A stretch of DNA of 64,000 nt from Octopus vulgaris (Eukaryota), in the NCBI GenBank assembly GCA_951406725.2, contig OX597823.1, positions 66,340,001-66,404,000 of the forward strand, in the 5' to 3' direction. Shown here piece after piece: positions 2,571 to 47,251 of this stretch (positions are counted from its first letter, which is position 1; every line of letters begins with the position of its first letter). The translations under genes and the position numbers were made by a program. The notes beneath the pieces are model-generated. The model searched no databases. It was not told where the DNA came from and saw only the letters and a program-made list of their open reading frames with translations.

Positions 2571-5500
2571 AATCATGTATGTATGTATGTATATATCAGG
2601 TCATGTTTGGTCTGAAATTCTGCGAAGCTCATGCTGGGGGGGGGGCTAATGAACTACTCAGGCTGTTATATACTCCGCGTTGTCACAATACCGACAAACC
2701 TAGATTAACTCTTACCTAGTTCTCCACTTCTCTGTTCAATTTTGAATAATTTTAAATTGGCTGAAGTTACGGACTTATTTTTTCTGGTCAGAATTTATCG
2801 TATTCTAATACCTAACCATACCTGTCATCTTAATTAATAATAATATCATGGTCCACCGTACTACTTTTGGTAGCACATTTGTATTTATTCCGATTTGAAT
2901 AATTTCGACTAAATATCGAACTTTTCAGCATTGCTTTTCAGTTAATTATTTCTAACGTCACTTATTTTCCTTAATTCACCACAGAATACCTCAGCATCCA
3001 AAAACTTTTAAAAACTATGCAGCATTTTAAAATATTAATTAATAAATTGACATTGTTGATTATATCTTTTTTTTTTCCTTTTAGTACTTAAATTAAGAGA
3101 AAGCATTCGAAAATTTCATATTGACGCCTGATTTATTAAATAATGTATATATAAAACATCCCCACATGTAATAAGTGCTGCTGAATCAAGAGAGTAAATT
3201 GCATGAAATTACCGCGATATTTTAAACAGTCACCATTCATTTAGCAGCATGTGTATTGATTTCCAACTTATCATATTCATTTACATCTTAAGAAATGTAT
3301 GAACGTAATATGTTCGACTGAAAGCTAATGCAAAGTATATGCAAATAGCTAACAAAATTTCTATCAAATTATAACATAAACAAACAATTTAAGAATGATA
3401 ATAGAGAATTTCTTGAGCATATATATATATATACACACACACATATATATATATACATACGCATATATATATATATACACATATATATATATACACACAC
3501 ATATATATATATGTATACACATATACAAACACACATATATACACACACACATACACATATATATATATATACATATATATATAACGCAGATCATTCAAAA
3601 CATTATAATTTAGCCAAATGGACACGACATTTCTTGTGTTCTTTCTGTTTAAATTGTTACAAATAATGTTTTATGGAAATATCAAATTTAATTAAAATGG
3701 AAGCCGTAGTAGGAATATGATACATTACGTTCGTGCGTTTTCTACAAAATGTAATTTAGAATAAGTGAGACTATTTCAATCGCTAAGACAAACTGAAATA
3801 TACATTTTACACCGTAGGCTTCTTTTTGTTAACCAATATCATTGCCGAGGTGAATTGTTACAATAATATAATGTATGTAAGTAGGAGCACAATGAAATGT
3901 ATGCAAATGGAGATTACATACCATGTATATAAATATAGAAAAACGATGAAATAAATATATGTCAATTTGTATATAAAGATGACACATCTTGAGTCATTCC
4001 AAAACGCACTAGTAGTCTCTTTGTTCATAATATATCTCAGTTAGTTTTTCCTGTCCACTGGGAAAAATACGAAACATTGCAAAATTTCCGACGTCCAGTC
4101 ACTGTAGATATAAGTTATTATAGCAAGCTAGATTCTAAGCATTTTACAAAGATTCTAATGTATGACATATAATAGGTGCCTTAGCGTGCGGAACAAGTTC
4201 GATAAACTTATATTCTCTCTTAACGACTTTTAGATTTAGTTTAATATTGAATACTATAAATTAAAACTTAGTGTATCTAAAGTAGTCGAAAATATAGAGT
4301 AAGAATTTTGTAGAATATGCGTCAGTGGTTTATATAACATGTTTAGAAGTGCTCTATGTATGTATCGACACTAGACAATGTCTATCCATATACTTATAAA
4401 TAAGCGTCAAAGGACCGAGTGAATATACTGATCTAGGAATTAAGAGCAATGTAAAATTCGCAAGCGCTTCGATAACATGCAATTGTCAGATAAATAAAAT
4501 TGTTGGAGTAGCTTGGAAAGAAAGCCCACTCTGCTACGTACAGATGTCTTAGGTAGACATCATAATGATAACTAATTTTCTACAGTTTGATAGGTTATAG
4601 TCACCAAAATCTAATTCTGACGTAAGGTGTACATATTGTATTTTTCGACATAAGACTGTGATCAGGTAATTCTGTTTTATAGATAAGTACAAAACTAGGC
4701 TTCCATTTTTAATCATAAGTAACCATTAAATTACCATTAAAGTGGCATTAAGCTTTTATCGTCATGATTAATGCTAAATGCATAAGATCAATTCTTTTTG
4801 TTTATTTTTGCCAAACCAAACTTTGACAAGAGTAAAGATGCAACTGAAAATTGAACCCGAGTGACAGTCTACTTGAGCCACGTAACATTGCTGTTGCTTA
4901 GCTCCCGATCAACGTCGTGATAGAATTATGATCAAAATATTTTCAGCGATAACAATCACCATCTTGTTTTAAGACATATACGAGTATGTTATAAAAATGA
5001 TGGAAATTTGCTGCTTATGATAGTAATAATGATTGCATATGCATTATATTTGGCATGCTTCATTTGACAGTACTGAAACAATCTGCACATATCCTTATTT
5101 TACAGCTAGATAGGTTACTAAGAAAATACGTAATATAAAAAACCAAAAGTCATTAATTTTGATGTTTTTATTACATAAACCTCCAGTTTAATAACCAACC
5201 GCCCGAAAATATTAACGGTTAATATATATTGTTGCATATTAGAATACGAATCGATGAATGTTGGAGTTTTAAAAAATATAATAGACACTGTGTTTCAAAT
5301 CTGGTGCGCATCTCGTTTATTATCATAAATATTAACTATATTGAAACATCAGGAATGGAACGGTTTATGTTTCTGCTGAATTGCTGATTATATATGAAGA
5401 TAATAAGATATTAGTTTAATTTCCTTTCACTCTATATTTATTACTACGTTTACAATAGTTGTAGAATTTGTGGTAGTGGATTATCAAAATCCTCGGCCAT

Positions 5501-6194
5501 CGAGCAAAATGTTTGTGCTACTTTATCTCACATTTTACGTTCTGTGTTCACCTATCACTGAGATTAAAATTGCCTCGCATCCACCAGGGTTATATAAAAG
5601 AAATTATTAGTTGAAAGTGTTGATCGATTTGAGCGAGTGACAATCTACTCCAAAGGTTGAGACAAAAACTCTATTACTACTTTTGATTATTTATATTTAC
5701 AAATATGCTTAAATTTTCTTTCGTTGTTTAATGGGAGAAACATGTGAATACTGGTTTGGACTTTTTACAAATGTTCATACATACGAATAATTCACAATAG
5801 CAGAAGTAGCAGCAACAACAGCAGCGGAAAACGGCACATATGCATGTATGCATCCATGAGAGAAATTAGGTCCTTCAAAAAGACTTCTTTAATGGCACAC
5901 CCCCAAGCCGGATTTCGTGTTAAACCGGGTTACGGATTAGTGCTACCGTCCATGTATATAACGTTTAAACGAACACTTTTACGTCGATTAATAAGGTGTG
6001 TACAATGCTGAATATGATATATTAAATAAATGTGTTTAGATACAAAGATATATATTGATGTATACACACACACACACATGATTATATACAGGTGTTTCTT
6101 AATGTTCATTACATAATAGGCGTTAAATCATCCGTCACACATATATAAACTTCACATATAGATACATACATATATAAACATATATATATATATC

Positions 6195-6429
6195 CAGAGT
6201 CTGGATAGATTCCTTCAAAGAATACCAGATAAGCCACCCATAATTGGATACAACTCACTCAACAAGAACTCACTACTTGAACAAAACTGGATACAACTCA
6301 CCCAACAAGAACTCACTACTTGAACAAAACTTGACTTAAACAGGATTCGAATAATCCTATCAGGTGGTGCTATTAAGTTAGACATGGCCTGGACCAATCT
6401 CTGGTCGAAACATATCTAAGTTTTATCTA

Positions 6430-6433
<4 letters not shown>
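6195..6433 (+). mobile_element. 3' end of a CR1/L2-like LINE inserted in (TA)n
   Basis: Translates SLDRFLQRIPDKPPIIGYNSLNKNSLLEQN (LDxFLxxIPDxP..GY..NSL C-terminal motif). Has a 43-bp tandem duplication at 6245-6330, a short repeated tail (tatctaagttt)x2, and (TA)n on both sides. Confidence 0.6.
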
Positions 6434-6471
<38 letters not shown>

Positions 6472-6799
6472 CATATATTTATATATATATGTTCGAAAAT
6501 TCTCACTATATATGTGTGTGTGTGTGTGTAATTGTGCTGTAACATTACTAACAGACTATTCTTTAAAACCTCTCGTACCAGATTAAAATATCAACTCTGC
6601 TACAAATAGCAAGAAGTTTCATTTTATATCCACAGACAATAGCGTTAGTGAGCACAAGTATTAACGTTGTAGTTGAGAAAAAGTTAGCAGACCTAAGAAC
6701 TAGAAGTCATCCTAGTATTAGAATATATTTACCTGCATCATTATTATTCGCACCGGCTGTCAATCCGCCGACATCCTGACTGCTGCTCAATGTTCTATG

Positions 6800-7460
6800 A
6801 ACGATGTAAAGGTAGTAACACGTGGAAGGGACAGCATGGAAACCAATTTTTTCAAAACTAAGATGGTCTTCGGGTGTGTTTCCAGCGACGGTGACGATAT
6901 GCCGGCCCACGTCTTTGAACAGGTGCGTAGGCTCAATTTAGACGGTTATGTGAAGCTGTAAGAGAATCTAGTCGAAACTTGGCTGTAGAGAGTTGCTGCT
7001 CGAAGTTTATATGAGGGGCTGCATAATCTGTTACAACAACATCTCTTCTGAAAGAGATGGGCACTTTTTTAGATAATTTTTACGGCTTCACCAGCTCCGA
7101 TTTCTGTTATCCTAATTCCTCTGATTGTAATTCCATGGATTACTATGTGTGTGGAATAGTGAAGAAAGACACTAACCACTCTGACTGCAATATCAAGGCC
7201 GAGTAGGTGACCAGGATGAAAGAGGTGTTCAAAGAACTTTCCATGGGCACGTACATTGAAGAACATATATCCCAGGCTCCTGGTGTGTCTTGATGCCTTG
7301 GTGGAAGCTGCGGGCGGCTACCTAGATTAAACTTTTATCTCCGAGTCATGATCCAGTTAAATTTTGTTGATTTTTTAACATACTTTAAGAAATGGGTAAT
7401 TGTGCTTTGCGTCCCGTTTATGCAAACTCTCAAATTTAGCCCAAACAACCATTATGTATA
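6800..7460 (+). mobile_element. Tc1/mariner (maT/DD37D-like) transposase C-terminal remnant
   Basis: MVFGCVSSDGDDMPAHVFEQ..RLNLDGYVKL, then YPNSSDCNSMDYYVCGIVKK (cf. WPPNSPDCNPMDYYVWG), ending LDALVEAAGGYLD* at ~7330. Contains multiple stops and frameshifts. Confidence 0.8.
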
Positions 7461-8502
7461 TAAACGTACATGCATAATGTACAATTTAACTGTCTGTATG
7501 TTTCTCTGTGTGTGTATGTATATATATATATATATATGTGTATGTATATGTGTATGTATATATATGTATATGTGTGAGAGCGTGTTTCTCTATATATGTG
7601 TGAGTATGAGTGTGTATTTGTGCGTGCGTGTAAATTAATGTAAACATACAGGTCAAATAAATCAAATAAATATCCCGCATATGAGCTGGAAAAAAATCGA
7701 TTTTGGCCAAAAAAACTCCTTTGCCCTAATTCATCTTGAAATTATTGAAACATAGATAATATTCACAAACTACTAGAACTGATTGCCGGCAAAGATGTAA
7801 AGAGTTTGGTCAGAAATATTATGAAAAATGAAGTAAAGTTTAACAGTTCTATTTAAGTTTCAGCTTCGTGACTTGAATAAGATTTTCCTTCAAATTATAT
7901 TTCGTCCAAGAGTAGTTCTTTTCAATTACGAGTTAACGAATTAACCTTTCATACACTTGAATCGGAAGGCAATCTATTTTATTCATGATCTTCTGTTAAA
8001 TCCATCTTTTCACAATGTAGCATTTCCAGCAAAAGATAATTTACGAAAAGTCAAATAAGTCTTGAAAAGTAATTATTATTCTTGTAGTTCCTTCCTAAAT
8101 GTGATCAATAATTTCAATATTTTCAGCTTGCGAAAGTTAGTTCTAAGTTCACTTGTTGGCCTCACAGAGCGGCTGACATTAACGATGCAGTGTTACATTT
8201 ATAATGCATATACCTTACGGAATTTTTAAATATTATTGCTCTCGTTAATTTTGTTCGTCTTTTCTAATTCCTAAAATATATGTACATGCATACGCACAAC
8301 CTCACACATACACGTACTCACTCACATACCCATGCACACACACGCACTCACATATATGTTAGTATACATAGGTGTTATATATACACACACACATATATAT
8401 ATATATGTTTACCTATCAGTATATCGCTACACACACACAAATATATATACAGGAAAACACATATATTTATGTATATATGTATTTATGTATATATATATAG
8501 AT

Positions 8503-8549
<47 letters not shown>

Positions 8550-11113: not shown

Positions 11114-11875
11114 TGTATGTATGTATGTATGTTTGAGTGTGTATGTAGATATAGATATGTAAATATATAGGCAGACAGTGTGTATCTATGAATACATGTA
11201 TGTTTATAGAGACAGTCTGTGTATGATACAGAGATAGCAAGAGGGAGAGAGAGAGAGAACAACGTCTTCTGCAAATACCACCTGGAATCTGAAACAATAT
11301 GTTCGTTTCGGTTCTATAATAATCCAATTATTGAAATAATTGCCTACCTCCCTTGCTGCATGGTAGAAAGATAATTATTTGATTAGGGGAGTAGAGCCAT
11401 CCCATTCCGTCATCCGGAATGGGACTTATATATATATGTGCGTGCGTGCGTGTGTGTGTGTGTATGTATGTGCATGTATTTATATGTATTATTTATTACG
11501 AGTGGTTAGCATGCATAAATAAAAGTCATATACACATACATACACATAGACACATGAGGCGACACATATTTATACATAACAGACGCACGTACATAGTCAC
11601 ACAAATCCATACACATAGACGTACTCAAACATGCACACACAAGGAGACAGACAAACACACAAATACACGCACACACATACACATACGCAAGCATGAACAC
11701 ACACACATTAATTTGCAGAATGCATACCTACTTAAAAAGGTACACACATGCATACATATATATACATATGCATACACAGATACATACATGCATACATATG
11801 TGTATACACGTGTAGACTGAAGTACATTCATGCGCATGCACAAACAAAAAGAACGCAGCTCTGATAACGGACAAG

Positions 11876-12059
11876 GTCAACGACTATTGAAAATGTTGCA
11901 AGACGCAAAGAAACTTTTAGAATAAGAAGTAATTGAATGGAAATCGAACTGGTGTTAAATAATAAGGCACTAAAAGAGAATTACTCTCCTCAGATATAAT
12001 AAGATATGATTCAACACACGAATTCACGTAAATAATCTTGCAAACCAAACACAAAAATG

Positions 12060-13612: not shown

Positions 13613-13883
13613 TATAAGATATACTTACGTATTACTACAACAGAAAGACCTGACCATAATTCACATCGCCCCTAAAGTGAACCATTTCGATGAAATAATG
13701 AAATAAGTGATCCTGTTATTTTTGAGGAACTTACTTGAGAGATATAAATGTCTTGAGAGAGGAATGAAAATATAGAGCGAAGCTGAATTAGAGAGACAAT
13801 TGATCATTAATGTTGATTCAATGGGGATTTGACGTACATCACCAAACTTCTTGCAAATAGCAGGCGATATTCTCACCAACCAA

Positions 13884-14095
13884 AAGGCGGCGTGCTGGCA
13901 GAAACGTTAACACGCCGGACGAAATGCTTAGCGGTATTTCGTTTGTCTTTCCTTTCCAAGTTCAAATTCCGCCAAGGTCAACTTTGCCTTTCATCCGTTC
14001 GGGGCCGATGAATTAAGTACCAGTTGCATACTGGATTCGATTTAATCCACTGCCCCTCCCCCAAAATTTCGGTCCTTGGGCCTAGAGTAGAAAAA
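13884..14095 (+). mobile_element. tRNA-derived SINE family B, full length with TSD
   Basis: Head aaggcggcgtgctggcagaaacgtt, B-box-like agttcaaattcc, and central gcctttcatccgttcggggccgatgaattaagtaccag. 17-bp TSD gatattct(c/t)accaacca at 13866-13882 and 14096-14112. Confidence 0.9.
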
Positions 14096-14337
14096 GATAT
14101 TCTTACCAACCATACTATCGCCTGTTAAAGATTAGGTATATTTGACAATAATATCAATAATGTCAGTCATTATGTTACGCTACACCTCACCTGACAATAC
14201 AATGAAACAATGAGACAACAATGCATAAGCGACTATGCTGCAAGACACATTTGACGCGTCCAAAGTTTTTTATAAAATGTGTTGCAATACGTGTGTGTGT
14301 GTTTGTTAAATGAAATGAGATAACGAAGCCGAAGTTA

Positions 14338-14549
14338 TTCTCTTTTACTCTTTTACTTGTTTCAGTCATTTGACTGCGGCCATGCTGGAGCACCGCCTTT
14401 AGTCGAGCAAATCGACCCCGGGACTTATTCTTTTGTAAGCCCAGTACTTATTCTATCGGTCTCTTTTGCCGAACCGCTAAGTAGCGGGGACATAAACACA
14501 CCAGCATCGGTTGTCAAGCAATGCTAGAGGGACAAACACAGACACACAA

Positions 14550-14580
<31 letters not shown>

Positions 14581-14752
14581 CATATATACGACAGGCTTCT
14601 TTCAGTTTCCGTCCACCAAATCCACTCACGAGGCTTTGGTCGGCCTGAGGCTATAGTAGAAGACACTTGCTTAAGGTGCCACGCAGTGGGACTGAATCCG
14701 GAACCATGTGGTTGGTAAATAAGCTACTTACCACACAGCCACTCTTGCGCCT
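14338..14752 (-). mobile_element. tRNA-derived SINE family A, full length
   Basis: Minus-strand head aggcgcaagagtggctgtgtggtaagtagc...gattcagtccc (A/B boxes), internal (TA)/(TG) microsatellite, and (gagtaaaa)n tail. Near-identical to other copies in the window. Confidence 0.9.
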
Positions 14753-14787
14753 GTGGAATTTTCAGGACATTTATAGAGAGACAGTTA

Positions 14788-14835
14788 GCCTTACAGCTGT
14801 TTCTGGGATATTAGAGATATCGCTTCATCAGAGAC
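14788..14835 (-). ncRNA. Minimal type-I hammerhead ribozyme motif (Penelope pLTR/retrozyme type), sub-family 1
   Basis: Minus strand reads GUCU-CUGAUGA-agcgauau(cucua)auauccca-GAAA-cagcug-UA-AGGC. The core is intact, stem I is GUCU/AGGC, and stem III is the palindrome CAGCUG. Confidence 0.75.
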
Positions 14836-15600
14836 GATGTGAGATGGTTAACTAGAGAGAAATATTTGAGTTCAATATGAGGAGTTATTTTGTTAAAGGA
14901 AACAAATAAAGAGTATATAGGGAAATAGGAGAATGGATGTAGAAATAAAACTAGAAATGTATAAAGATGTTATAGTTGCAGTTCCATCATCCAATGAAAG
15001 TGGTGTGTCGAAGTGGTAGAAATGTTTCCTGCCTGTGGTATGTATATTTTGTCATCGCAAATGTAAAGTGTGGAGACCTATGTTCCATGTGCTGTTCAAT
15101 CAAAGGGGTCTTGTGTTATGAGTAAAGATTTAAGATGTGATTGTTAAGATGAAGAATGTTAAGATGAGACGTGAATGTTAAGATGAAGAGAGGACAAAGA
15201 AAAATGTGAGGAAAGAAGGAAAGAAAGAGGAAGAGAAAATGAAAACAAGAAGAGAAAAAAGTGAAAGGGGGGTTGTTAGTTGATGCTCAAGATATTAAGA
15301 GGGGAATGGGAGGGAGTAGGGAAGGGTAGGAAGATATATGAATGTAAGTATTGAATAGGTGTGAGGTGGGGTGATATGTTTGAATGGCATTAAGGGATGG
15401 GTACAGAAAAAGGTATAGATGGGGGGTTTCTAAAGTGAGTAATAAACTACAAATGGGAAGGGAAGAATACTAAGAATGGTTAAGTTTCTATAAATGGACT
15501 TATGTGTGTATTCTACTAGCTAATGTGATAGCGTGGACAAAAGGACCACAAAGAAAGAAAGAGAGAGAGAAGTGTATATCAATATACGCTCGCACACATG

Positions 15601-15693
<93 letters not shown>

Positions 15694-15931
15694 CTGTGTC
15701 TGTGTCTGTGTCTGTGTGTGTGTGAGTGTGTGCGTGTGCGTGTATGCATTATTATATAGGCCTGCATACTTGTGTATTTAAACCCGTACGCATGCATGCA
15801 TATACATATACAAACATGCATATACACGTACATACATATACGCATACACATGCGCATATATACACGCATATATGCACGCGAACACACATACATACACGCA
15901 TGCACACACACATACATACATACATACATAC

Positions 15932-16018
<87 letters not shown>

Positions 16019-17030
16019 TAAGCACATACATCCGCATACGCATACATATGCATACCCAGACTGGGTGTTCGTGTGTTTATGTATATGTTTGTGCCTGCAT
16101 CGATTCTCCAAAATATAAATGAATATCAGAAGTAACTGCACAGTATTCTTTAAGGCATTATAATGAGAGGTACTAAATAAACATTACCCCACGATTCTTA
16201 TTTATAGCTTACCATCAGGTAACCTGAACATGTTTTGTATTAAATTATGTGAAAATTTCTTTACTTTAATATTTTATGAATATTCATTTTTTCGTTCCAG
16301 CCATGATGCAGCGGTCATGATGGAGCACTACAGTGAAGTATACTGTACCTCACATCAATGACCTCGAGATTAAGAGTTACAGACTATAAGTATTTCAAGA
16401 GCAATGTGTTTGTTTCAGTCTCATTCATTCTATTTCTATTCTGACTCCCTTGTGAATATTTCAACGATTTTTCTTTTCGTTACTTATTGCAATCGTTATT
16501 TAAACCTCTCACAAGACAGATTTAAGAAAAAAAAAAACTCATCTTATAAAATTTTCTAGTTAGTAAAACGGATGCCGTCTACTTAGGTATTGATATTTTT
16601 ATTGCTATGCAATATGCTATCAGCGCTGTCTTCCTTGAGCAACCAGAACTTTTTAGCGCTCAATTATTTACCAAGCACCCCTTATAAAATCAACCTCATT
16701 GGAAGATAACGGAGATGCTAACTTACTGTAGTTGTCAACTAACTTTCTCATGCTGGGTGGTTGATGTGATTTCCAGTTTGAGCAAATTGATTTATCATCC
16801 TTCTTGTTGTATGGTCTCTAACTATCATTATCCATTTTCGGGGTAGTGTTTAGAAAACTAGTACCACTAAGGGTAGTACCCACAGTAATACTAGGTCCGA
16901 TTTTTAAAAATTTATTTATCAAATTTTAAAAAATATACTTCCAATTCCTGATTATTTCAATTTCTCGAAAGACACCAGCTAGTAATGTGTTGTAAACTAC
17001 ATTACATAACAGGTAATTTCGTTTCCAATA

Positions 17031-17264
17031 AGGCAGCGAGCTGGCAGAAACGTCAGCACGCCGGGCGAAATGCATAGCCGTATTTCGTCTGCCATTACGT
17101 TCTGAGTTCAAATTCCGCCGAGGTCGACTTTGCCGTTCATCCATTCGAGGTCAATAAATTAAGTACCAGTTATGCAGTGGCGTCGATGTAATCGACTTAA
17201 TCCGTTTGTCTGTCCTTGTTTGACCCCTCTGTGTTTAGCCCCTTGTGGGTAGTAAAGAAATAGA
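17031..17264 (+). mobile_element. SINE family B, full length with TSD, alternative tail
   Basis: Same head and core as the 13884 copy. TSD taatttc(g/t)tttccaata at 17014-17030 and 17265-17281. Confidence 0.9.
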
Positions 17265-18432
17265 TAATTTCTTTTCCAATAAATCTACAATATAAATATT
17301 GTGAATGAAATCATACTGCTTTAGCACTATAATTTCACTCACATTAGCAATATTCCAGGCTATCATATGTCAGACTCGTCATCTCCGCTTTTCCGAAATC
17401 GTATTTTGTTATCGGCAAGCAGAACTCTTATTCCACATTCTCACTCTGAAAACTATATTAATGTCTGACTTCCCAATATCAAAGAACCTTTCGCAATTTC
17501 TAACATTGTATCACACTGCGTGAGAGTACTTATCTCTGAGTGTGTATGTATGAGTATGTGTTTATTTGTGAGTGTGTATGTGTTTGCTTGTGTGTGTGTG
17601 TGCGTCGGTGTGTGTGTGTGTGTATGTTCACTGAAACAGTTATATAGAACATTTAATTTCCGGTTGATGCTTATCTGATACACTCAAACTGCAGATTATC
17701 TCAGAAAAATTATTACGTGTGATTATATAAATTTAGACGGCATCTAGCCCTTAAAGGAGAACAGACACTCCAAGTAAACCGAGATGCTAATGCAGATTTA
17801 ATTCCCACCACAACAACTCTCAATTTATGTTTGTACTATTGCCTTCAGTTTAAGTTGCTAAAATAATTAAACGATACTCAAGCTAATATTAATGATTATT
17901 AGATACAGTCTGCAACAGCAGCACCTAAATGCGGCCTTCAAGCTATTGTTCACTACTGATTCTATTTTCATTTTGTGAGGTTCAGTGAGTATGCAGTCGC
18001 TGTTTTCATTCCACTCGTACATTTAAGAGTAGATAACTCTAAATTCAACGTTTCGATTTCGTAAGAACATTCAGCTCGCTATGGTTACTATTATATTATA
18101 GTGTTATTTTTAATTTGTGTGCATATCTAATGAAATTTTTTAGAGCACGTGCAATATTCTAAAAACATGAATGACAGTCATATCCAGCTGAGGATATTTA
18201 TTCAATCGGCAGAATTCTCCTTATGTTACGAGTATGCGGTACTACAGTACTGAGGTTTGTAACCTATATGGTCAAGATATACTCATAGTAAGAGGATTTC
18301 AATCAAACCTAACTTAAATTATATTCCGCTTCCTTAAGTACGAACAATATTCACTTGCCTATATTTATTACGCGTAAGTTATCAGGTTGCTTTTATATGT
18401 TATATTTTTATATTATATTAAATTATATGATA

Positions 18433-18507
<75 letters not shown>

Positions 18508-18542
18508 CACATACAAACAGAAAGAGAGAGAGAGAATGAAAG

Positions 18543-18598
<56 letters not shown>

Positions 18599-19672
18599 AT
18601 ATACATTTATGCTGAGATATGTATACACATATATGCAAAAGGAGCACACATGCAAGCAGATCTGCAAGTTACAAACAGATACATATCACATCAAATCTGA
18701 AAGATATGGTAATGAAATTATATGAAAATAGTTTCCTTTTACGCATATTAACATTACGTAATCTAAGTAATATGTCTGCTCATGTAATATTTTCTACGTT
18801 TGCAATTCTTATATAAAATGTAACACATAAAAAACTATCACTAATCAGAATCAAGTATTACATCTTACTCGATCACATTTGTGTTACGTTCAATATATTT
18901 TCTATTTATCTGCAAGTATAGCCTTATTGATTACAGCTCAAGGATATAGACTGGAAATTAAAGACATTACATGTATGAGACTGATTTCTATCACTTCGAC
19001 GATCGAACGGAACAATTAACACTTCCTATACGTATATAATTATCCAGACAATTTTCCGAGCTACGAATAAATTACAAGGAATTTTCCAAAACGACCATGT
19101 TAAATACTGTATCTAACATGAGAATTCTTGTGAAATTAACTTCAGTAATTGTATACTTACATGCATACTTACAGACGTACATACATACCTGCATACATGC
19201 ATGCATACCTAGATATACAACTAACAGTTATGCCCAAAATTCCAATGCGGTTGCCTAATAAGTAAAACTTAACTGGTAACTACAGCTGTTACAAATAACC
19301 AGGATTGACCGTGAGAAAACTATATATTAAGAATTCGTAAATTACAGTTAAATATGGCTCACACCAGTGATTAATCATATTCTCTGAGTATTTCTGTAAA
19401 TAAATTAATATTTGGATAACGTGCTGTCTTCCTATCACACTATTTATCAAAATGTCTTTATCTACATCTTTATATCAATATACATAAAAATGTATGTGCA
19501 TGTGTGCGTATTTGCGTGTTGTGTGTATGTATATATGCATATATATACACATATTTATACATATATATACATATATATATATATACATATACGTATATCT
19601 ATAAATACATATATATATACATATATACATATACATATATACGTATACATATATACGTATACATATATAAAC

Positions 19673-19728
<56 letters not shown>

Positions 19729-19869
19729 TTATGTATATATATACATATCGACCTACTTACATGTCTACATCACTTCCTCCTTATATGTGTATGTGTGTGC
19801 GAATGTGTGTGTGTGTGGTACAGTATACACTTATAAACACATATATAAACGTTTACTCACTCGCGGATG

Positions 19870-19931
<62 letters not shown>

Positions 19932-20540
19932 GTGTGTGTGTTTGTGCGCACGCGTATGCGTGTGTGTTTCAGTGTGCCTTTATTATATGGCGATAATATT
20001 TGCGGCCACATTCTCATATGTAGAAATGGGCAATTGATCAAAGCCGATATGGGACTACTTCTGTAGGGATGCTATATAAATCACTGTGAACAGGTGTCTG
20101 ATGTCTTATCATTTTGGATATTGCTTATGAATGCCAATATTCATAAAAGAATTGATTAAATCTATTCCAAATCTAAAAGTATATTACATATAATTGCGCG
20201 AGGTTAGTAAGTGAATATATATATTACAAATAAAGTCACAAATTTTCATGATGCATTTCATGAACAGTTGTGATTTATGCCACTAGGCGTGGCGAAGCAA
20301 GAACATAAAACTCATGAGCGAGAGTATGAAAGTTTTCAAGAATACGAGTAAATCAATAAAGTCATTAATTATGAAGTAACTATGCTATACGTTTGACGTG
20401 AATGTTGGATTAATAAATGAGTAATGTTGAGGAGTGTAAACTTTGAATTGATTTTCACAGTAATATAAGTTATGTTAAGTCTCTCACAGATGAGAAAATG
20501 ATATTAGACATAATATAAGATTAAGTATAAACACACAGTT

Positions 20541-20582
<42 letters not shown>

Positions 20583-20907
20583 CGTTGAATGTTTCAATTA
20601 TTTTTTATCTTATAAAGCACGAGTAAATAAAAACAAAATGAGTTTTACCAAACGAATTTCTTTCCACCTTCTGCTAATGAAGATACCACGTGTTCAAAAA
20701 TCCCTATGAGTATAGGATGGCTGCTGGAACTGCAGTTTTTGTCCAAATTAAAATTTTAGTTTTATATATACATTTACACAAAACTACCTACCGACTTGCG
20801 TATATAGTAGATGCACACCACACATACGCATAAAACATGTATGTATGTATGTATATGTATGTATATATGTATGTAAGTATGTATGAATTTATATGTTTAT
20901 ACATGTA

Positions 20908-21287
20908 TCGTGGCACTCCGTTGGTTATGACGACGAGGGTTCCAGTTGATTCAATGAACGGAACAGCCAGCTGGTGAAATTAATGTGCAGGTGGCTGAGT
21001 ACCCCACAGATACGTGTACCCTTAATATAATTTTCGGGGATATTCAGCGACACAGAGTGTGACAAGGCTGGCCTATTGAAATATGGGTTCAACAGAAACA
21101 GGAGGGAAAAGTGAGAGGAATTTGTGGTGAAAGAGTACAGCAGGGTTTGCCACGACATCCTGCCAAAGCCTCGTGGAGCCTTTAGTGTTTCCATTCAATA
21201 AACACTAACACCGTCCGGTCTTACAGTCGAAACCGCGATCCTACGACTGCGAATCCGTTGCCCTAGCAACTGGGCCATTGCGCCTCC
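20908..21287 (-). mobile_element. tRNA-derived SINE family C
   Basis: Minus-strand head gaggcgcaatggcccagttgctagggcaacggattcgcagtcgtaggatcgcggtttcgact; body homologous to the 25581 copy. Confidence 0.85.
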
Positions 21288-21661
21288 ACATATGCATATA
21301 TACATATGTATGCATACACCTGCATGAATACATATTAAAAAACTGGAGATTTGTTAGAACTTCAAAGAGTTTTCTTTGCAGCAATCACCCGAATCTCTAA
21401 TTCCGAGTTCAAATCTCAACGAGGCCAGCTTTTTTTTTTCACCTTGGGTGTTGATAAATAAATTATAGACCCTAAATTTTTGTCCATCATTCTCACATAC
21501 TTTATGTTTATTTAATGTGTCTCTTCCGAAAGAGGAGTGTAAATGTACCCAGTACACGCCGTATGTCGTGACGAGGCCTCTGATATTCAAAGGATTTGTG
21601 ACTCTAAGGCAAGGAGCACGTACACATTCAGATAAAGCACGTACACATTCAGATAAAGATA

Positions 21662-22020
21662 TTTACTCTTTTACTTGTCTTAGTCATTTGACTGCGGCCA
21701 TGCTGGAGCACCGCCTTTAATCGAGCAACTCGACCCTGGGACTTATTCTTTTTGTAAGCCCAGTACTTATTCTTCGGTCTCTTTTGCCGAACCGCTAAGT
21801 AACGGGGACATAAACACACCAGTATCGGTTGTCAAGCAATGCTAGAGGGCAAACACAGACACACAAACACACACATATATACATATATACGACGGGCTTC
21901 TTTCAGTTTCCGTCAACCAAATCCACTCACAAGGCTTTGGTCGGCCCGAGGCTATAGTAGAAGACACTTAACACGCAGTTAACTGAACCCGGAACCATGT
22001 GGTTGGTAAACAAGCTACTT
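21662..22020 (-). mobile_element. SINE family A lacking the first ~25 nt of its head
   Basis: High identity to 14338-14752. It stops abruptly at the junction with the ORF1-only element. Confidence 0.9.
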
Positions 22021-23835
22021 TATTTCATAAATTTGTCATGTAGACAGTACAAAGAGCTTTGCGGGCTGGACAAATACATTAATGAATGAAAATGAATTAT
22101 AATGAATAAATGAGAGACGAAACCCAACACCCGCCGATTGGATTTTTCTTGAAAACATATTTTCTTTTTTGTTTTTTAAACAATCAATATATGGTTTCGA
22201 ACCTTTTACAAGGAGGAGGCACTAAAACCTCTTACTTAACATATTTTCTTTTTTCTTTCTTAAAACACAAAATTGAGGTTATAAACCACTACAAAATAGT
22301 CCAATAAGGTGAGGTTTCAAACTCTGTAACGAGGTTCTTTCACCTCCTACTCTTCGATATATCCATCGATATATTCATCATTATCTTCAATACCGCTTGA
22401 GTTCCTGTATCCCTCCATTTCCCATGCCTCACTCATGTAGGACATGTAAGTCGTGTAAGGGCCACCCGGCCATATGCGACACTCCTCCCCAAATCCTTTA
22501 AGCCTTTCCCACAAGGGAAACCTTATGACCTCCACAGCTATCTGCGGAGGCCATTCGGGATCCCGTGTGAAGGGCATATCTACTGTTTCTTTATGTTCTT
22601 CTACTATTTTTCCACCTCCCCGCCCTTGTAGAAAAAGATAGTTAATTGATCATCTTTAAGGGTGGGGGTGGTTTCTTCCACCGTGGGTGGCACAACTTCG
22701 GGATATGCAGTCGGCACATCATCTCCCTGCTGAGATGACCCGTTCTTCTTTCTTTTTTTCCTTTTCTTCCTGGCTTCGGGAGAGTGGAGCTCTTCCGTTT
22801 TGTCCGGAGACTCTCCCCCGCCTCCCGAAGCCTTAGGTTCCTTCGGCGGGCAACTATTGTTGCCCGCCTTCTTCCTTTTTAATCCTTTTTTGAGTTGAGG
22901 AGGCTGAAGCCTCTTCGACCACATCCACCTCTCCCTTTGACCGGGTAGGGGAGGTGGCATCTGGTGACTGTTCCAGGACCATACCATGGTCCTGGGGGCA
23001 GTTCCTTTTAATGTGGCCTGGCTGCAGGTACGAGTGACACTTTGGGGGACGTCCCTGAAGTATCACCGGATAACTGCAGCCAGCCATTTTCAAGAAATCT
23101 GGAAAAACCAGTTCTGTTGCGGCCGATGGGGTCCACAGGGTCAAAATCGCTTTTGACCCTTCCCAATCGACCGCCGGCAATACTCTTACATTTAAGAGCC
23201 TGGGCCCGCCATCTCCCAGTCCCCGTCGGATGGTATCTTCAATCCAATCCGCTTCGGTGCCCGGGGGGAGCCCACATATCTAGGCTCGTATTAATTTTCT
23301 TCCACAATATGACGGGAGAAACAGGATTTCCTTGCCTTCTAAAGGCCCACTCGCAAACTGGCGAGCCTTTTCCCCGTTGTCAAACAGCAACCATACGGTT
23401 GCATGTTTGACACCACGGGATATATATTTTACAGAGGACAAATGTTCTTTAAGTTCATTTTTTATGACTTGTTTTGGGAAGGCGGTGATGGAATTAAGAA
23501 CTTTAGAATATGTTCTAAATACCAACGTCTTCTCTTCCATATCTTTTAACCATTGCTTAGGCGGGTTAATTTCCCACTCTAAGACAGAGTTTTTCTTTTT
23601 AAGTTCCTTCTCTGCCATGTCAAAAACAGTTCAAGAGTAGTTCAAAAGACAGTCTGCCAAAAAATTAAACCGAATAAAAATAAAACAATATAAAGGGGAG
23701 GGGAGGAAACTGAAATTAAAGTAATGAAAAGAATGAACCAAAATTTTTTAGAAAGAAAGAAATAATAGAAGGGAAAAGTAAGTGAAAAATCTCACAAGTA
23801 GCACAGACAGGGAATCCTTTGTATAATACTCCAAA
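22019..23835 (-). mobile_element. ORF1-only (gag-like, CCHC zinc knuckle) L1/Tx1-type retroelement, frameshifted
   Basis: Overlapping ORF pieces 23618-23280, 23180-22854, 22987-22604 and 22577-22347. They contain VILQGRPPKCHSYLQPGHIKRNCP (CX2[C>Y]X4HX4C) and a basic KKRKKRKK tract. The putative 3' UTR ends in AATAAA at ~22019-22024. No ORF2 (EN/RT) follows. Confidence 0.7.
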
Positions 23836-24197
23836 AAGTTAATCCAAAAACGAGAAATTACTAATTATATATATTTTGTTATTACTGTAAGAGATCATTT
23901 GTGAAAATGACATTTCAGGAGCATTTTTAATGAATTTGTCACTCTAATAAGGTAATTTCAGCAGATCACCGTTCATTTTACTCTAATATTTTGGTGCACA
24001 TAAAATTCCTCGTTTCTCTCTTTCTTCGGGGGTGTCATTAAAATAAACTTGGAGTAGTGACAAAAGAGAAATTCCAAAGCGTCAATGTGTTGAAAGAGCC
24101 TGAATTTTGATTGGCTTTCTGTCGTAGCTTCGGTAATTTTTCACATGTACGTTCCATATTCATGATGAGATAATCCGAGGAGTAAGCATTTAATAAA

Positions 24198-24241
<44 letters not shown>

Positions 24242-24256
24242 TTACATATTTGCATA

Positions 24257-24291
<35 letters not shown>

Positions 24292-24311
24292 TTTTTATTT
24301 TTAATATATAT

Positions 24312-24386
<75 letters not shown>

Positions 24387-25580
24387 TAGATATATATATA
24401 CACACATATACACACATATATATATTGAGAGGGGGACATGGATAGATAGGGAGAGAGAGAGAGAATAATTGTGCAAATGAAATAACATACTAAATTATGA
24501 ATAAATATATAGAAATAAATCATTCCGGTATATAATGGTAAAAATGAACTGATCAAATCTATCAGCATTGCATGGCGTAAAATTATTACGTGTAAATTTA
24601 CATCCATTACACTCCAAATATATAGTCTTTTGCAGCAACGCCAGTATTGCTTCAATACACGTTACAGTCATATATATTAAGAGATAGGCTCCCACGTCGA
24701 AAATGGTGTATTTAGAAAGAATTGTTTTTAACGATAGTACAAAACTAGGAATAAATGACGGCATGTAGAAATTTCATCCTATCTTTCTGTTTATGTTTTG
24801 ATCGATATCAAAATGATGAACAATGCTAGCTAGCCGTGATTGAATTTTGACTCAGGACCTGACGTGACATCAAAATATTTTAAGTCTTTCAGGCAATCAG
24901 ATTAATGATTCTGCCATAAATCACTCATAAGATGAGAAGGTGGAGAAGGGGATGGAGGATAAGAAGTATGAGGAGCAGGAGAATTAGAAGGTGAAGGAGG
25001 CGGAAGTGAAGTAGATGAAGAATGAAACGTAGAGGCGGAATGGAAGAGGAAGGGAAGTAGTTGAAGGGGTACGTTAGTTACATAAGCAGAAGGGACGAAA
25101 GCTGGAAGAGAGATCAATCGACTACAGTGACCTCGGCATTTAATCAGTACTTTAATTTCATCGACCACGCAAGGATGAATGGCAAATTGACCTCGGTGAG
25201 TTCTCACGATTTAAACTTGGAATGAATGGTGTGTAAAGAAACTGTTCGGCCAATCTATTTTTGGTGGGTTTTTTTTATCATTATCTAAAAGTCAACAGAT
25301 AATGAAATATTACAGGATGGGGCATAAAGTAAATGCAGCTTTAGGAATCTGAGTAGTATATCGACAGGAATTTCCACCTCAGCGTAAAAATATAAGACGA
25401 TACAGATGAGATTAATATTGTGGAATAATAGATCATATTCTACCAAAATAACCACGGTTAGGTTAACATGGATATAAAAAGTTCTAAGCATGATAAAATT
25501 ACAGCAATAAGCAAATTTTAGGCTTGAGATATGGTAGTGAGAAGTATAACCATTTATATATTTGTATATTCCTTGATCGT

Positions 25581-26046
25581 AGAGGCGCAATGGTCTAGTG
25601 GTTAGGGCAGCGGCCTCGCGGTCGTAGGATCGCGGTTTCGATTCCCAGACCGGGCATTGTGAGTGTTTATTGAGCAAAAACACCTAAAGCTCCACGAGGC
25701 TCCGGCGGGAGCTAATGACACCTGCTGTACTCTTTCATCACAACTTTCTTTCAATCTTTGTTTCAGTTGTATCTGTATTTCAAAGGACCAGCCTTGTCAA
25801 ACTGTGTCACGCCGAATCTCCCCGAGAACTACGTTAAGGGTAAACATGTCTGTGGAGTGCTCTGCCACTTGCACGTTAATAAATGAGCAGCGACGTCACT
25901 GGTGCCAAGCTGTATCGGCCTTTGCCTTTCTCTTGGATAACATCAGTGGCGTGGAGAGTGGAGGCTCGTATGCGTGGGTAACTGCTGGTCTTCCATAAAC
26001 AACCTTGCCCAGAATTGTGCCTCGGAGGGTAACTTTCTAGGTCACA
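25581..26046 (+). mobile_element. tRNA-derived SINE family C, full length with TSD
   Basis: A box tggtctagtgg and B box gtttcgattcc. TSD attccttgatc(g/a)t at 25568-25580 and 26047-26059. Confidence 0.9.
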
Positions 26047-26144
26047 ATTCCTTGATCATGATGGAGTAACTTTTTTCCCCTATACAAGCCGAAAAGGTTA
26101 TAGGAAACAAGGACAAGATAATTATTATAATCACTGATAAAATA

Positions 26145-26283
26145 AAAGGGCTTCAAATTTTGTCAAAGTGCTAACACATTTGGAGGGGAGCGGAAATCCA
26201 TTACATTGGCCCCAGTGAACAACATACACGAAACACCGCTAAGCATTTTGTCTGGCGTGCTATAGATACTGCCGGCTCACTGC

Positions 26284-26285
<2 letters not shown>
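26145..26285 (-). mobile_element. Degenerate, internally deleted SINE family B
   Basis: Reverse complement of the head (gccggcagtatctatagcacgccagacaaaatgcttagcggtgtttcg) and tail-like sequence. Confidence 0.6.
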
Positions 26286-26350
<65 letters not shown>

Positions 26351-26352
<2 letters not shown>

Positions 26353-26914
26353 TGGAAGCTATGCCAACATTATGGAATAACAACAGAAAACCTATCAAAA
26401 AGATGGTATAGGCACACACCAGAAAAGGTCACAGAAAACGAGAAAGCAACCATACTCTGGGATATGCCGATACACACAGATAGAGAAATTAAGGCCAACA
26501 GGCCAGATATAGTTGTCAGAGATCATGAAGAAAAAAATGCTTTCTAATTGATGTATCAATACCGGTAGATGACAACGTGTTTCTAAAAGAAATGGAGAAA
26601 CTCTCAAAATACAAAGACCTGGAAATAGAGGTAACTAGAATGTGGAATCTGAAAACAGAAACAATTCCTATCATAGTAGGTGCATTAGGCATGATAAAAA
26701 ATATTCAGACAAATACATAACAAAAACACCAGGACTTACAAACACATATAACATACAGAAAATTGCACTACTAGGCACTGCACACATCCTACGCAGAACA
26801 CTTTCCATACAATAACCATCAGAGCATCACAACAAATCACAGCACATACCCAAGGCACACAGAGCTGCGCTCGGTAGTGAAGTGAAAGCACGCTATAAAA
26901 ATAAAACTACTGAA
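26351..26914 (+). mobile_element. 5'-truncated Dong/R4-like retrotransposon (RLE domain plus 3' UTR) inserted in (TAA)n
   Basis: WKLCQHYG...WYRHTPEKVTENEKATILWDMPIHTDREIKANRPDIVV...LIDVSIP...KEMEKLSKYKDLEIEVTRMWNLKTETIPIIVGALG...KIALLGTAHILRRTLSIQ*, with two single-base slips in A runs. (TAA)n lies directly on both sides. Confidence 0.9.
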
Positions 26915-26918
26915 TAAC

Positions 26919-26996
<78 letters not shown>

Positions 26997-27086
26997 AAGA
27001 AGAAGAACAACAACAACAACAACAATGATGATGATGGTGATTATAAAAATAATAATGATGAGGATGAGGATGATGATGATAATAAT

Positions 27087-27134
<48 letters not shown>

Positions 27135-27160
27135 CATTATTATTATTATTATTATTATTA

Positions 27161-27225
<65 letters not shown>
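26914..27225. repeat. Compound trinucleotide microsatellite (TAA)-(GAA)-(CAA)-(GAT)-(TAA)-(TTA)
   Basis: Read directly from the sequence. Confidence 0.95.
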
Positions 27226-27929
27226 CCAATAATGATATATTCATGTTTCTAGATACCACCATATAGAAAATGTGTAGTTTATATGAGATCACATGTTTAG
27301 AGCCCATAAGAGTATACATAAAATTAAAGTTCCTCTTCCGAAATCTCATAAAATGGAATTTTATAAGACATAAAATAGCTTACGAATTTAAAATCTGTAA
27401 CCAGATTGTGTCTCAAATTCTTTTATTATGATATTAAAAAATAACAAAAAACTTACAAATATGGCTATTGTATATGGTATATAGAATTATAAATTTTTCC
27501 TAATTATAAACGCCCAAGTTATAAGTTCCAAACGATATATCGTTATGTTACTAAAAACGTATGACAGTAGTGAAAGAATAAAAGAAGACGAAAGTTTAAC
27601 AGCTCGTACATGTAAAAATGTCATTTTTCATCAAATTCATAATCATGAGAACAAAAAAAGTTCATTCATATATTAAAGCATAATAGCATGCTTTCGAACA
27701 TTATATTCAATATTTATATGCATAATTTAACAAGTGATTTATCCTTGTAAATTTAGCGTGAATATTATTGGAGTTAGCAGAACATCATTCTTGCTTGTGT
27801 CATCGCAAGTGATGACAATATATTTAATTATGAACAATGCCCTACCACTTCAAACTCAGAAAAGACATCATTGTTAAATTTCTAACAATAAGATTTTGCA
27901 AGAAAGGATTTAATCATTCTTTCTGATAT

Positions 27930-28130
27930 AGGCACACAGCTTGAAATGCTTGTAGGAAAGAGGCCTGGTCATTTTCATCGAGCCCAGTGCTCAACATATG
28001 CTTTCTTTATTGATCTTGGAAGGCCGAAAGACAGCATCATCGCGGCGGTATTTGAACGCAAAAGGAAGATGGTTGACGTGCCGTTAAGCACGTTATTTGG
28101 CGTGCTAAAAATTCTGCCATCTTGCCACCT
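27930..28130 (-). mobile_element. Degenerate SINE family B
   Basis: Weak reverse-complement match to the family B head (ggtggcaagatggcagaatttttagcacgcc) and core. Confidence 0.5.
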
Positions 28131-28837
28131 TGTATTTTTATTTAATAATCTAAATTATTATTCTGCTTGTTCGTTCACGCCTTACACTTTAGTTTGTTAC
28201 AGATGGTAGAGGTGAAGTGAGAATGAAATAAGAGTGGAATGAAAGAGAGGGGGAGCGAGTGAAAGAATTAGAGGCGAGAAGAAAGAAGAAAGAAAGAAGT
28301 AGAGAAGGATGCATAAATATGAATGCATGCATTTAATAAGTATATGCATCTCTATATTAATACACTATGGTAAAATGTGTGGCGTTGTGGTTAGTTGAAG
28401 GGAGAGGGAAGACATAGTAGACTGGGAGAGAGACAGAGAGAAGGAAAGAGAAAGGTGGTCAGCGGTGAGAGCTAGGAGGAAAGGCTTCTTATTATGGTAT
28501 ATTATTAAATAGTTAATGGAAGAGGTAGATAGAAAGAGGGAGGAGAAAGAGAATATATAACGTAGGGCAGTTGTGGTACAGTTGAAGCAAGTAAAAAGAG
28601 AAAGTGGGGAGAGAGAAGGGGGAGAAAAAGAGGGAGAGAGAGAATGTGTTTATTGAAGGGAAGAGCAAAAAGTGCTAGTTTTTTATACTTTATCTTTCCT
28701 TTTCATATCACCCATCAGTTAATGTATGCGCTTTATTGAATTAACTATCGTCTCTTCAGTCAAAGCTTACACAATACGGCCAACAACAGACGATGTAAAA
28801 CTAACAAGACAAAGAATAAGGATTTTATTTCAAATCT

Positions 28838-29461: not shown

Positions 29462-29691
29462 CTTACTCTCTCTTTTACTCTTTTACTTGTTTCAGTCATT
29501 TTGACTGCGGCTATGCTGGAGCACCGCCTTTAGTCTAGCAAATCGATTCCAGGACTTATTCTTTGTAAGCCTACTACTTATTCTATCGGTCTCTTTTGCC
29601 GAACCGCTAAGTTACGGGGGTAGTAAACACTCCAGCATCGGTTGTCAAGCGATGTTGGGGACACACGCACAAACAAACATACACACACACA

Positions 29692-29742
<51 letters not shown>

Positions 29743-29878
29743 CTTAACTATCCTCTCACACCGTCTCCGATGAAGGGATATAATTAATAAATAGCCTAGA
29801 AACAACTGTAAGACCTTCTATCTATAAATGGTCTAATATCTACACAGCCTTGCTTTTTATCTTATTACGCAAAAAAAC

Positions 29879-29916
<38 letters not shown>

Positions 29917-41783: not shown

Positions 41784-42384
41784 CCCTTTTGGTATAATGT
41801 GACTTAGCATCCATCCATTTGAAACCACTCCATAAATATCTTGTTCTATTTTTTGAATAATGAACATAATTTTTCCTTATAGAACTATTGATAATATAAC
41901 GTAATCAAAGAGTGTTGTGTACAATGTGACATAGTCAGCGAAGCAGCAAAAATAAAATAATTTATCGCTGTTTACCCAAACAGTGTGTGTATGTACGTAT
42001 GTATGTGAGTATGCGAATATATTCATATGTGTATGCATACATATGTGTGTGTATATATACATATACATGAATGTGTGTTTATGAATGGGTGTGCGTTTCT
42101 ATCATCAACATGAATACAACTATCACAAGCAAAGATAATATATATTATGAAGTAGATAAGCAAATCCATTTCCAATAAATATATATAATGTGGTATCCTG
42201 GTTTATTTTAAAAGTAGAATGAAATGTCTTTGATCTATGAGAATAGACGTGAGATTAATCAGCAACAACAATACAATTATCAACAGCAACATGACCACCA
42301 CATTATCAAAAATATCCGCTCATCATCACTATCATCTAAAACCAATGCAGTCCACATCATCACCAATATCAACGCAGCAACTTT

Positions 42385-43275
42385 CGAATACTAAATAATA
42401 TAAACCCTAACATTCAATTTACAATGGAATATGGCAAAGAACAACTATATTATGATAAAATAATATGATGAAATATCCTCTTTAATTTAGCAAAAACACT
42501 TGCACAATATGTCTGATGGAAATACTCGGGACTTTTATCTTCAGAATACACAACAGCTCTAACTGAAAGACAATATCCATCCTCAGTTATAGAAGATGGG
42601 GTTAAGCGTGCTTAGAAATTCAGTATTACAACACTAAATTTAACAAAATGTAACACCACACATCCATCTCAAAACAATACCGTATATATCAACCTACAAC
42701 CCTAGAAACAATGAGGCATATAACACTATTGTACAAAATCTGCCTTTGCTCACTAGAGACCCAAAAATGAACAACATTCTTAAAACACATAAATTCATCA
42801 AATGCAAAACGCCACACAAATCGTTGGAAAGACTTCTGACAAATGCAAAGCTTTACACAACCACGAAACCAACGGTTAAAAAATGTGGACGCCCAAAATG
42901 TGAAACTTGCCCCAACCTACTGGAAGACTCGGAGTTCTTATTCAAACAAGGAGAGAGGTTTACAATTAAAATCAGCTTCGTTTGTGCTTCCGAGAATATA
43001 ATTTGTTATAACTAGTTCAGTTAATATGTAGGACAGACAAGTATGATACTGAGATACTGAGACGGAGAACCACAATAGATAAGGAACAGTTTCGGGTCCC
43101 GCAATACAGACTGATTCATTTGAGTGAACACGTAGAGAGATGTGCAGGTAATATCCAACTAAATTTCAGTTTTTGCCAAATAACAGTGCAAAGAAACAAT
43201 TTCTGTACAAAAGCAGCTAAATAAAGAAAATCTGTTCATAGAAAATACACATGTCTAAATATGAACGTATGACCT
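42385..43275 (+). mobile_element. Penelope-like element (Neptune-type) remnant: RT thumb, Cys linker and GIY-YIG endonuclease
   Basis: LNNINPNIQFTMEYGKEQL, QYPSSVIEDGVKRA, TYNPRNNE, KKCGRPKCETCP, FVCASENII, YVGQTS, LSEHVERC. It ends next to (TA)n. Confidence 0.85.
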
Positions 43276-43375
43276 CAGTATATTTTATATATATATATTT
43301 ATATATATATATATATATATACCCTTTGCATTACAACTCACCACGTGGAGATAATCTCATCGTCTCTCTTTGTTA

Positions 43376-43406
<31 letters not shown>

Positions 43407-47218: not shown

Positions 47219-47251
<33 letters not shown>

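Follow-up and report, generated by a model that had tools for sequence, protein, structure and literature searches.

The window, a 64,000-nucleotide stretch of Octopus vulgaris DNA, carries on its minus strand a minimal type-I hammerhead motif that lies towards the 3' end of a non-coding element of about 830 bp, spanning about 15540-14308 less the SINE-like repeat that splits its tail (Table 1). Read along the minus strand from 14835 to 14788, the motif has the full type-I core, a 4-bp stem I and the palindromic CAGCUG, as the preliminary description had reported, and it is real; stem I includes one G-U wobble. The 8-nt palindrome that stands in the place of stem III is perfect and is predicted to form an intermolecular duplex of -11.1 kcal/mol. 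The extra A that precedes GAAA is present in both copies of the repeat found in the window.

Table 1. Features of the ribozyme-bearing element and of related loci, in window positions (segments of the minus-strand motif are given in its reading direction where arms or core strings are listed)
Feature	Position	Strand	Evidence or remark
Minimal type-I hammerhead motif	14788..14835	minus	sequence and motif scans with simulated controls
Stem I arms	14835-14832 (5' arm) / 14791-14788 (3' arm)	minus	4 bp
Core CUGAUGA	14831-14825	minus	
Inserted unpaired A after CUGAUGA	14824	minus	
Stem II arms	14823-14817 / 14811-14805	minus	5-nt loop; 7 bp in family
Second inserted unpaired A, directly before GAAA	14804	minus	
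Core GAAA	14803-14800	minus	
CAGCUG	14799-14794	minus	
U16.1 and A17	14793 and 14792	minus	
Predicted cleavage site	between 14792 and 14791	minus	
8-nt palindrome, A15.1 to U16.1	14793..14800	minus	in the place of stem III
Upstream body of repeat	14836..15540	minus	depth profile, composition, six-frame translation, tblastn; 5' limit approximate
Element sequence 3' of ribozyme, up to SINE insertion point	14752..14787	minus	alignment with second copy, loose ends at 14752
SINE-like repeat (head, internal (TA)n(TG)n, tail) splitting element tail	14339..14751	minus	separate from ribozyme element
Resumed element 3' tail after SINE, ending at (CA)n run	14308..14337	minus	
Second, 5'-truncated family copy, about 138 bp	29741..29878	plus	
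Broken Penelope-like ORF remnant (RT end, CX4CX2C linker, C-terminal GIY-YIG)	42370..43272	plus	homologs

Both strands of the window were scanned for type-I cores with pairing stems, which gave two motifs, the one at 14835-14788 and another at 59781. A motif comparable to the first was found in none of 100 order-3 Markov windows under strict criteria with a perfect palindrome, and in one of 300 simulated order-3 Markov windows under looser criteria. The hammerhead-like motif at 59735-59791 (minus strand, C3 at 59781) belongs to a different family, with a full core, a 10-bp stem I and a near-palindromic 4-nt stem III, and a usable stem II is absent. Its long stem is formed in the minimum free energy (MFE) structure (z -0.55), and a stem I of at least 8 bp together with a core was seen in 0 of 300 simulated windows; it is possibly a decayed ribozyme or an AT-rich inverted repeat. 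In prokaryote, virus and metagenome collections the pattern matched 21 loci (two viral, 14 from genomes and five from metagenomes), of which the best had a stem I of 3 bp and none reached 4 bp; we take them as chance matches rather than family members, and the collection scans found no member of the repeat family. Further pattern searches for related loci returned 8 and 70 matches, none of them confirmed as family. The Infernal check against Hammerhead_1 that had been suggested for the motif gave nothing: no Rfam family matched the whole window at the gathering score, and none matched 14600-15600 at E up to 10. Rfam overlooks the motif completely.

The motif is part of an abundant dispersed repeat family. 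Assembled contigs from 4 of 24 listed sequencing runs, under three organism labels, were aligned to 14740-15600 at an identity of at least 80%, giving 2209, 111, 1307 and 2339 contigs per run; that X8, the run with 111 contigs, consists of RNA is a guess, and its contigs carry no weight for expression. Summed depth was maximal in the bin 14798-14826, inside the ribozyme, in all four runs (286,556 in run X1), a peak that stems partly from the 80% threshold acting on an old copy. Elsewhere in X1 depth was 15,781-28,371 over 14856-15029 and 2,184-8,532 over 15349-15522, with gaps between; over 15552-15600 it was 141-479, and single contigs listed for X1 had depths of 27-64. Contig depth is not copy number and hints, at most roughly, at thousands of copies. 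By this depth profile the motif is kept across a large family, so that the lack of conservation across copies named in the preliminary description as speaking against its reading is not what is seen. Among the 24 of 979 loose-end entries listed, ends of low agreement (0.47-0.67) lie at 14786/14790 and 14844/14851, just beyond the motif, and agreement is higher (0.82-0.93) for the ends at 14752 and at 15048, of which those at 14752 occur in three of the four runs among the entries listed. Low-agreement ends on either flank of the motif suggest several subfamilies with unlike flanks and a common motif, as expected if the motif was under selection in the active elements. Three of the 15 joints listed (73 in all) switch strand, each carried by one contig per run, which offers a weak likeness to the inverted arrangements of Penelope-like elements (PLEs).

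Upstream of the ribozyme, the long pyrimidine-rich tract noted in the preliminary description was confirmed: over 681 nt it has only 43 G and is 66.8% pyrimidine, a skew that none of 187 window tiles equals. The approximate 5' limit of the element (15540) and the nearest dinucleotide run, a (TA)n/(CA)n array (15601-15743), are separated by about 60 nt. Downstream, the tail is interrupted by the SINE-like repeat, further copies of which were found by self-BLAST, for example at 21.7, 28.8, 29.5-30.1 and 55.7 kb, and which is putatively a SINE. Beyond it the element resumes, since the stretch 14337-14308 is identical to the family continuation past 14752 at 23 of 30 positions by hand count, ungapped, and the 7 differences are all transitions. 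Self-BLAST gave one further copy of the ribozyme family (match 29754-29830 on the plus strand: 81 nt at 76.5%, E 1.6e-9), which begins 26 nt before C3 and shares its tail end with the first; its core no longer has U4, its palindrome is disrupted and its stem II is one pair short. The same self-comparison revealed more dispersed repeats in the window, at 13880-14051, 17025-17197 and 45036-45174, at 20979-21310 with 25555-25880, and at 11838-12049 with 47271-47486. A perfect 58-nt inverted repeat (46778-46835 and 47162-47219), with arms about 330 nt apart, is MITE-like.

A SINE copy at 29464-30083 (minus strand) carries the second copy within its internal (TA)n, so that the nesting is reciprocal: a SINE sits in the tail of the ribozyme element at 14.3-14.75 kb, and a fragment of the ribozyme element sits in the same SINE family at 29.7-29.9 kb. 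Two families nested both ways likely had overlapping periods of activity. Of the four element ends tested, three have a dinucleotide run no more than 10 nt away, which is the case for 1794 of 61,724 background positions (2.9%), and a bias of ends towards microsatellites is described, in the accessible text of PMC8557442, for PLEs with a CX2-5CxxC linker. Both window copies have about 70 nt of element sequence 3' of the predicted cut and share their 3' end, which means that the cut site is not the genomic end. The earlier proposal that the motif marks the terminus of a self-cleaving RNA is therefore right as to its place near the 3' end of the element and wrong as to the terminus itself.

The same observations bear on a retrozyme origin, which had also been raised for the motif, and under which the locus would be a solo monomer of a non-autonomous non-LTR retrozyme family whose other members occur as tandem arrays and as circular RNAs. 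The length of about 830 bp without coding sequence would suit it, and solo monomers are common and derived from PLE pseudo-LTRs (pLTRs) according to the part of bioRxiv 10.64898/2026.07.22.740005 that is accessible. However, there is no tandem array over the motif at this locus, none of the 15 joints listed (73 in all) links a 3' end to a 5' end, and the copies are 5'-truncated rather than permuted at the cut site; retrozymes are moreover described, in the available text of PMC7229834, with canonical hammerheads and units of about 300 bp. Taken together, we regard a retrozyme origin as quite unlikely and read the locus as probably a PLE-type copy.

The copy itself had been described as intact, and in its core it is unchanged. 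Among the 40 of 163 differences from the contigs that were listed, two fall in the motif, both outside the core, and minor core variation is possible beyond those listed. At 14822 a letter that pairs in stem II makes up 94-97% of the family depth in all four runs, whereas the copy has a C, so its second stem II pair is a C-C mismatch and 6 of 7 pairs are left; at 14789 the letter that gives a full Watson-Crick stem I makes up 86-95%, again in four of four runs, and the copy has the G-U wobble. Against 86-97% of the family depth, these two private stem substitutions mean that the copy is not intact, and a third private substitution near the motif, at 14782, appears among the differences listed. 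With the majority letters a Watson-Crick 4-bp stem I and a 7-bp stem II are obtained, so that the stem II earlier called short is, in the family, a helix of 7 bp.

Folding was compared for the copy and for the majority letters. As a monomer, the hammerhead fold has a predicted energy of -8.8 kcal/mol with the majority letters versus -1.1 kcal/mol in the copy, a loss of about 7.7 kcal/mol, and predicted pair probabilities drop from 0.91-1.0 to at most 0.27 in stem II and from about 0.68 to 0 in stem I. For a 57-nt segment, the double-hammerhead fold reaches -33.5 kcal/mol with the majority letters, 2.2 above the dimer MFE, and -18.1 kcal/mol in the copy, 6.4 above it; for a 91-nt segment the gaps to the dimer MFE are 8.8 and 17.4 kcal/mol, respectively. 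The palindrome is paired between molecules in every dimer MFE computed. The hammerhead fold is never the MFE, as monomer or dimer, with the majority letters included, which agrees with the low activity reported for such motifs, yet limits folding as evidence, and the folding z-scores of the copy are unremarkable (-0.32 and -0.75). The slightly worn, solitary and destabilised copy is probably inactive and is predicted to be a weakened relic of a ribozyme that, in the family, would need two paired motifs in order to cleave.

Two further readings can be weighed against this evidence. It is very improbable, in our judgement, that the copy is a still active ribozyme kept for a host function, such as cutting an intronic or long non-coding transcript. 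Its core nucleotides and palindrome are all unchanged here and are lost in the second copy, but an unchanged core is unremarkable at such divergence; the private substitutions in or near the motif (14782, 14789 and 14822, among the 40 of 163 differences listed), the fall of predicted stem II pairing to about 0.27 and of stem I pairing to nothing, the lack of a tandem partner motif and the splitting of the element by a SINE all argue against such a function. A chance resemblance to a hammerhead inside an unrelated repeat, compatible with the absence of an Rfam match and with a hammerhead fold that is not the MFE of the copy, is hardly credible given the single comparable motif in 300 simulated windows, the improvement of both stems with the majority letters and the peak of similarity on the motif.

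We then considered which element could have been the parent. No coding sequence was found in the element of about 830 bp by six-frame translation and tblastn, and tblastn found no PLE protein similarity in the approximately 700 nt upstream of the ribozyme; a tblastn search of the window with 150 PLE-like homologs found only the ORF remnant at 42.4-43.3 kb and one weak 22-residue match near 22.9 kb, with nothing near the ribozyme. The longest open stretch of the remnant matched 439 proteins at E of 0.001 or below, and of ten homologs scanned all eight long ones carried RVT_1 and/or a C-terminal GIY-YIG domain and the two short ones matched no family. Pfam matched no family in three read-through pieces of the remnant, and another homolog search with it gave 59 candidates, none significant. 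A linker of the CX4CX2C type (CX2-5CxxC) is found, among clades with a C-terminal endonuclease, in Neptune and Nematis, as far as the accessible text of PMC8557442 goes; by this linker the remnant is of Neptune/Nematis type, a label that covers both clades alike. One homolog (P0005), annotated as myb-like protein D of Octopus bimaculoides, is 71% identical over 75 residues in the PLE linker region, so that this annotation likely covers a retroelement fragment; the match is suggestive of an octopus host, short of proof.

Behind the remnant lie two (TA)n runs (43286-43321 and 43376-43400), and the preliminary description had seen in a lead-in match at 43354 a weak pointer to a Neptune-like parent. 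That match covers 12 of 13 nt about 85 nt past the stop of the remnant and scores 21, on a scale where the second copy scores 23 and unrelated tiles 19-20. When 43270-43420 is shuffled 300 times, 71% of the shuffles reach that score with the element; the match is at chance level and the pointer is unsupported. There is no core after it, and the upstream body of the repeat finds no similarity 3' of the remnant (best score 22). The family of the remnant could still be the parent of the ribozyme family, which would refine and not contradict a PLE origin: it has the C-terminal GIY-YIG domain and the CX4CX2C linker, followed by (TA)n, and the 12/13-nt match lies close behind its stop. We nevertheless find this parentage doubtful, because the match is equalled by most shuffles and has no core behind it, because the 700-nt upstream body has no counterpart 3' of the remnant, and because O. 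vulgaris has 190 PLE consensus families (PMC13282606, available portion). The supplement of the same study puts PLEs at 6.83% of O. vulgaris, which, like the presence in the window of a PLE remnant with a C-terminal endonuclease, counts in favour of a PLE origin of the repeat. The family sequence is absent from the accessible supplements of PMC13282606 and PMC8967140, whose separate repeat libraries might name it. A Naiad parent was considered and set aside: four family motifs had no occurrence in the available supplement text of PMC8557442, where line breaks could mask one, and the single occurrence of a fifth belonged to a different species, in a passage without a core.

Other possible coding remnants occur in the window. 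On the minus strand at 597-2595 there are two open stretches, 597-1061 and 1870-2595, which to the eye resemble reverse transcriptase and restriction-like endonuclease pieces of a non-LTR element, putatively of Dong/R4 type; between them, at 1551, stands a CUGAUGA...GAAAA string without stems. A further set of minus-strand open stretches, at 22347-23640, resembles a LINE ORF1 and includes a zinc-knuckle-like motif (22854-23279); the GC content is higher there, at 0.418.

We conclude that the locus holds one solitary copy of a high-copy dispersed repeat with a minimal type-I hammerhead, likely the pLTR or 3' end of a Penelope-like retroelement, and we hold the PLE origin of the repeat to be well favoured. 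Under this reading, in a tandem transcript of the parent element (or in trans), two motifs would pair through the 8-nt palindrome and form a joint stem III, each core being completed by the UH and stem I arm of the partner motif. Cleavage would take place 3' of A17, probably slowly and aided by the protein of the element, and the extra A before G12 may lower activity. The RT/GIY-YIG protein of the element would nick AT-rich microsatellite DNA, and reverse transcription would begin downstream of the ribozyme, which would explain why truncated copies retain the entire motif. The template of new insertions would be RNA in which the cleavage site had stayed uncut or had been religated, given that sequence on both sides of the cut is present in both window copies. 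The copy at 14788-14835 would afterwards have decayed and been hit by a SINE.

As a single locus this worn repeat copy matters little, and it is an ordinary further example of a motif on record for many animals. More can be learned from the family. It likely extends the minimal hammerheads of Penelope type to a cephalopod genome, and the continuation of both copies past the cut site fits the recent view in which the 3' ribozyme of the insertion template stays uncut, a point of relevance to the open question of the role of PLE hammerheads. More speculatively, and with considerable doubt, we hypothesise that octopus-like genomes hold thousands of hammerheads invisible to Rfam, in which stem II stands between unpaired A's and an 8-nt palindrome replaces stem III family-wide; these would self-cleave as dimers and belong to a microsatellite-targeting, possibly non-autonomous Penelope-derived element active alongside a major SINE. 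If true, no hammerhead family would have been described from cephalopods before this one, and it would offer a natural test of the amount of insertion tolerated on the G12 side of the core. In the literature searched on octopus or cephalopod hammerheads, Penelope, Neptune and self-cleaving ribozymes, no such family is described, and the survey of Lunse et al., the most extensive on such variants, may cover it; the nearest published item, in the text accessible to us, is an 'HHR_half_core' remark on an octopus Naiad.

Comparison with known systems, made on the available portions of the sources, places the motif as follows. The element resembles PAc, a Poseidon element of Anolis (Frangieh et al. 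2024, PMC11167929), in having its ribozyme probably in a pLTR, in genomic copies that end downstream of the ribozyme and in AT-rich insertion. According to the accessible text of that study, reverse transcription of PAc starts inside the RNA, downstream of the ribozyme, and the PAc ribozyme cleaves only with the protein of the element and is dispensable for insertion in vitro. Unlike PAc, whose ORF starts in stem II, neither decayed window copy has an open frame that starts in or just after the motif. Non-LTR retrozymes (PMC7229834; Li et al. 2026 bioRxiv), as described in the text available, share with it a non-coding repeat, a type-I hammerhead and a relation to PLEs; in contrast to them it has no tandem array, a longer unit and a minimal rather than canonical motif. 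By its title and the accessible part of the review PMC6765202, the work of Lunse, Weinberg and Breaker (RNA Biol 14:1499) on diminished-stem-III hammerheads that cleave as dimers concerns the same short palindromic stem III.

The closest likeness is to the minimal hammerheads (min-HHR) of PLEs (Cervera and De la Pena 2014, PMC4209133), whose accessible text lists variants with a palindromic helix III in Drosophila willistoni, Aedes and Saccoglossus and reports that the cleavage of metazoan PLE min-HHRs is absent in monomers and low in dimers. Compared with the consensus given there at over 80%, in which C11.1 is followed directly by G12 (NNNNNC GAAAN), our motif differs by the extra A (14804) between the two. 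Among the 56 rows of Fig. S3 in that source, as far as accessible, one row has an extra A before G12 (Cotesia by row order, with an uncertain column layout), and none is from a cephalopod. The motif otherwise shares with the min-HHR, as presented in the same portion of the source, the type-I order and the complete core CUGANGA / GAAA / NUH; the nucleotide inserted after A9 (A14824) and the G10.1-C11.1 pair (G14823-C14805); the helix lengths, 7-8 bp for helix II and 4-5 bp for helix I against family-majority values of 7 and 4 bp; the palindrome of positions 15.2-16.2 and loop 3, here of 8 nt; and the many dispersed, mostly solitary copies, here 1307-2339 contigs in three runs and 111 in the fourth. 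In its architecture, therefore, the motif agrees with what the preliminary description had called it, a minimal type-I hammerhead of the Penelope-like kind.
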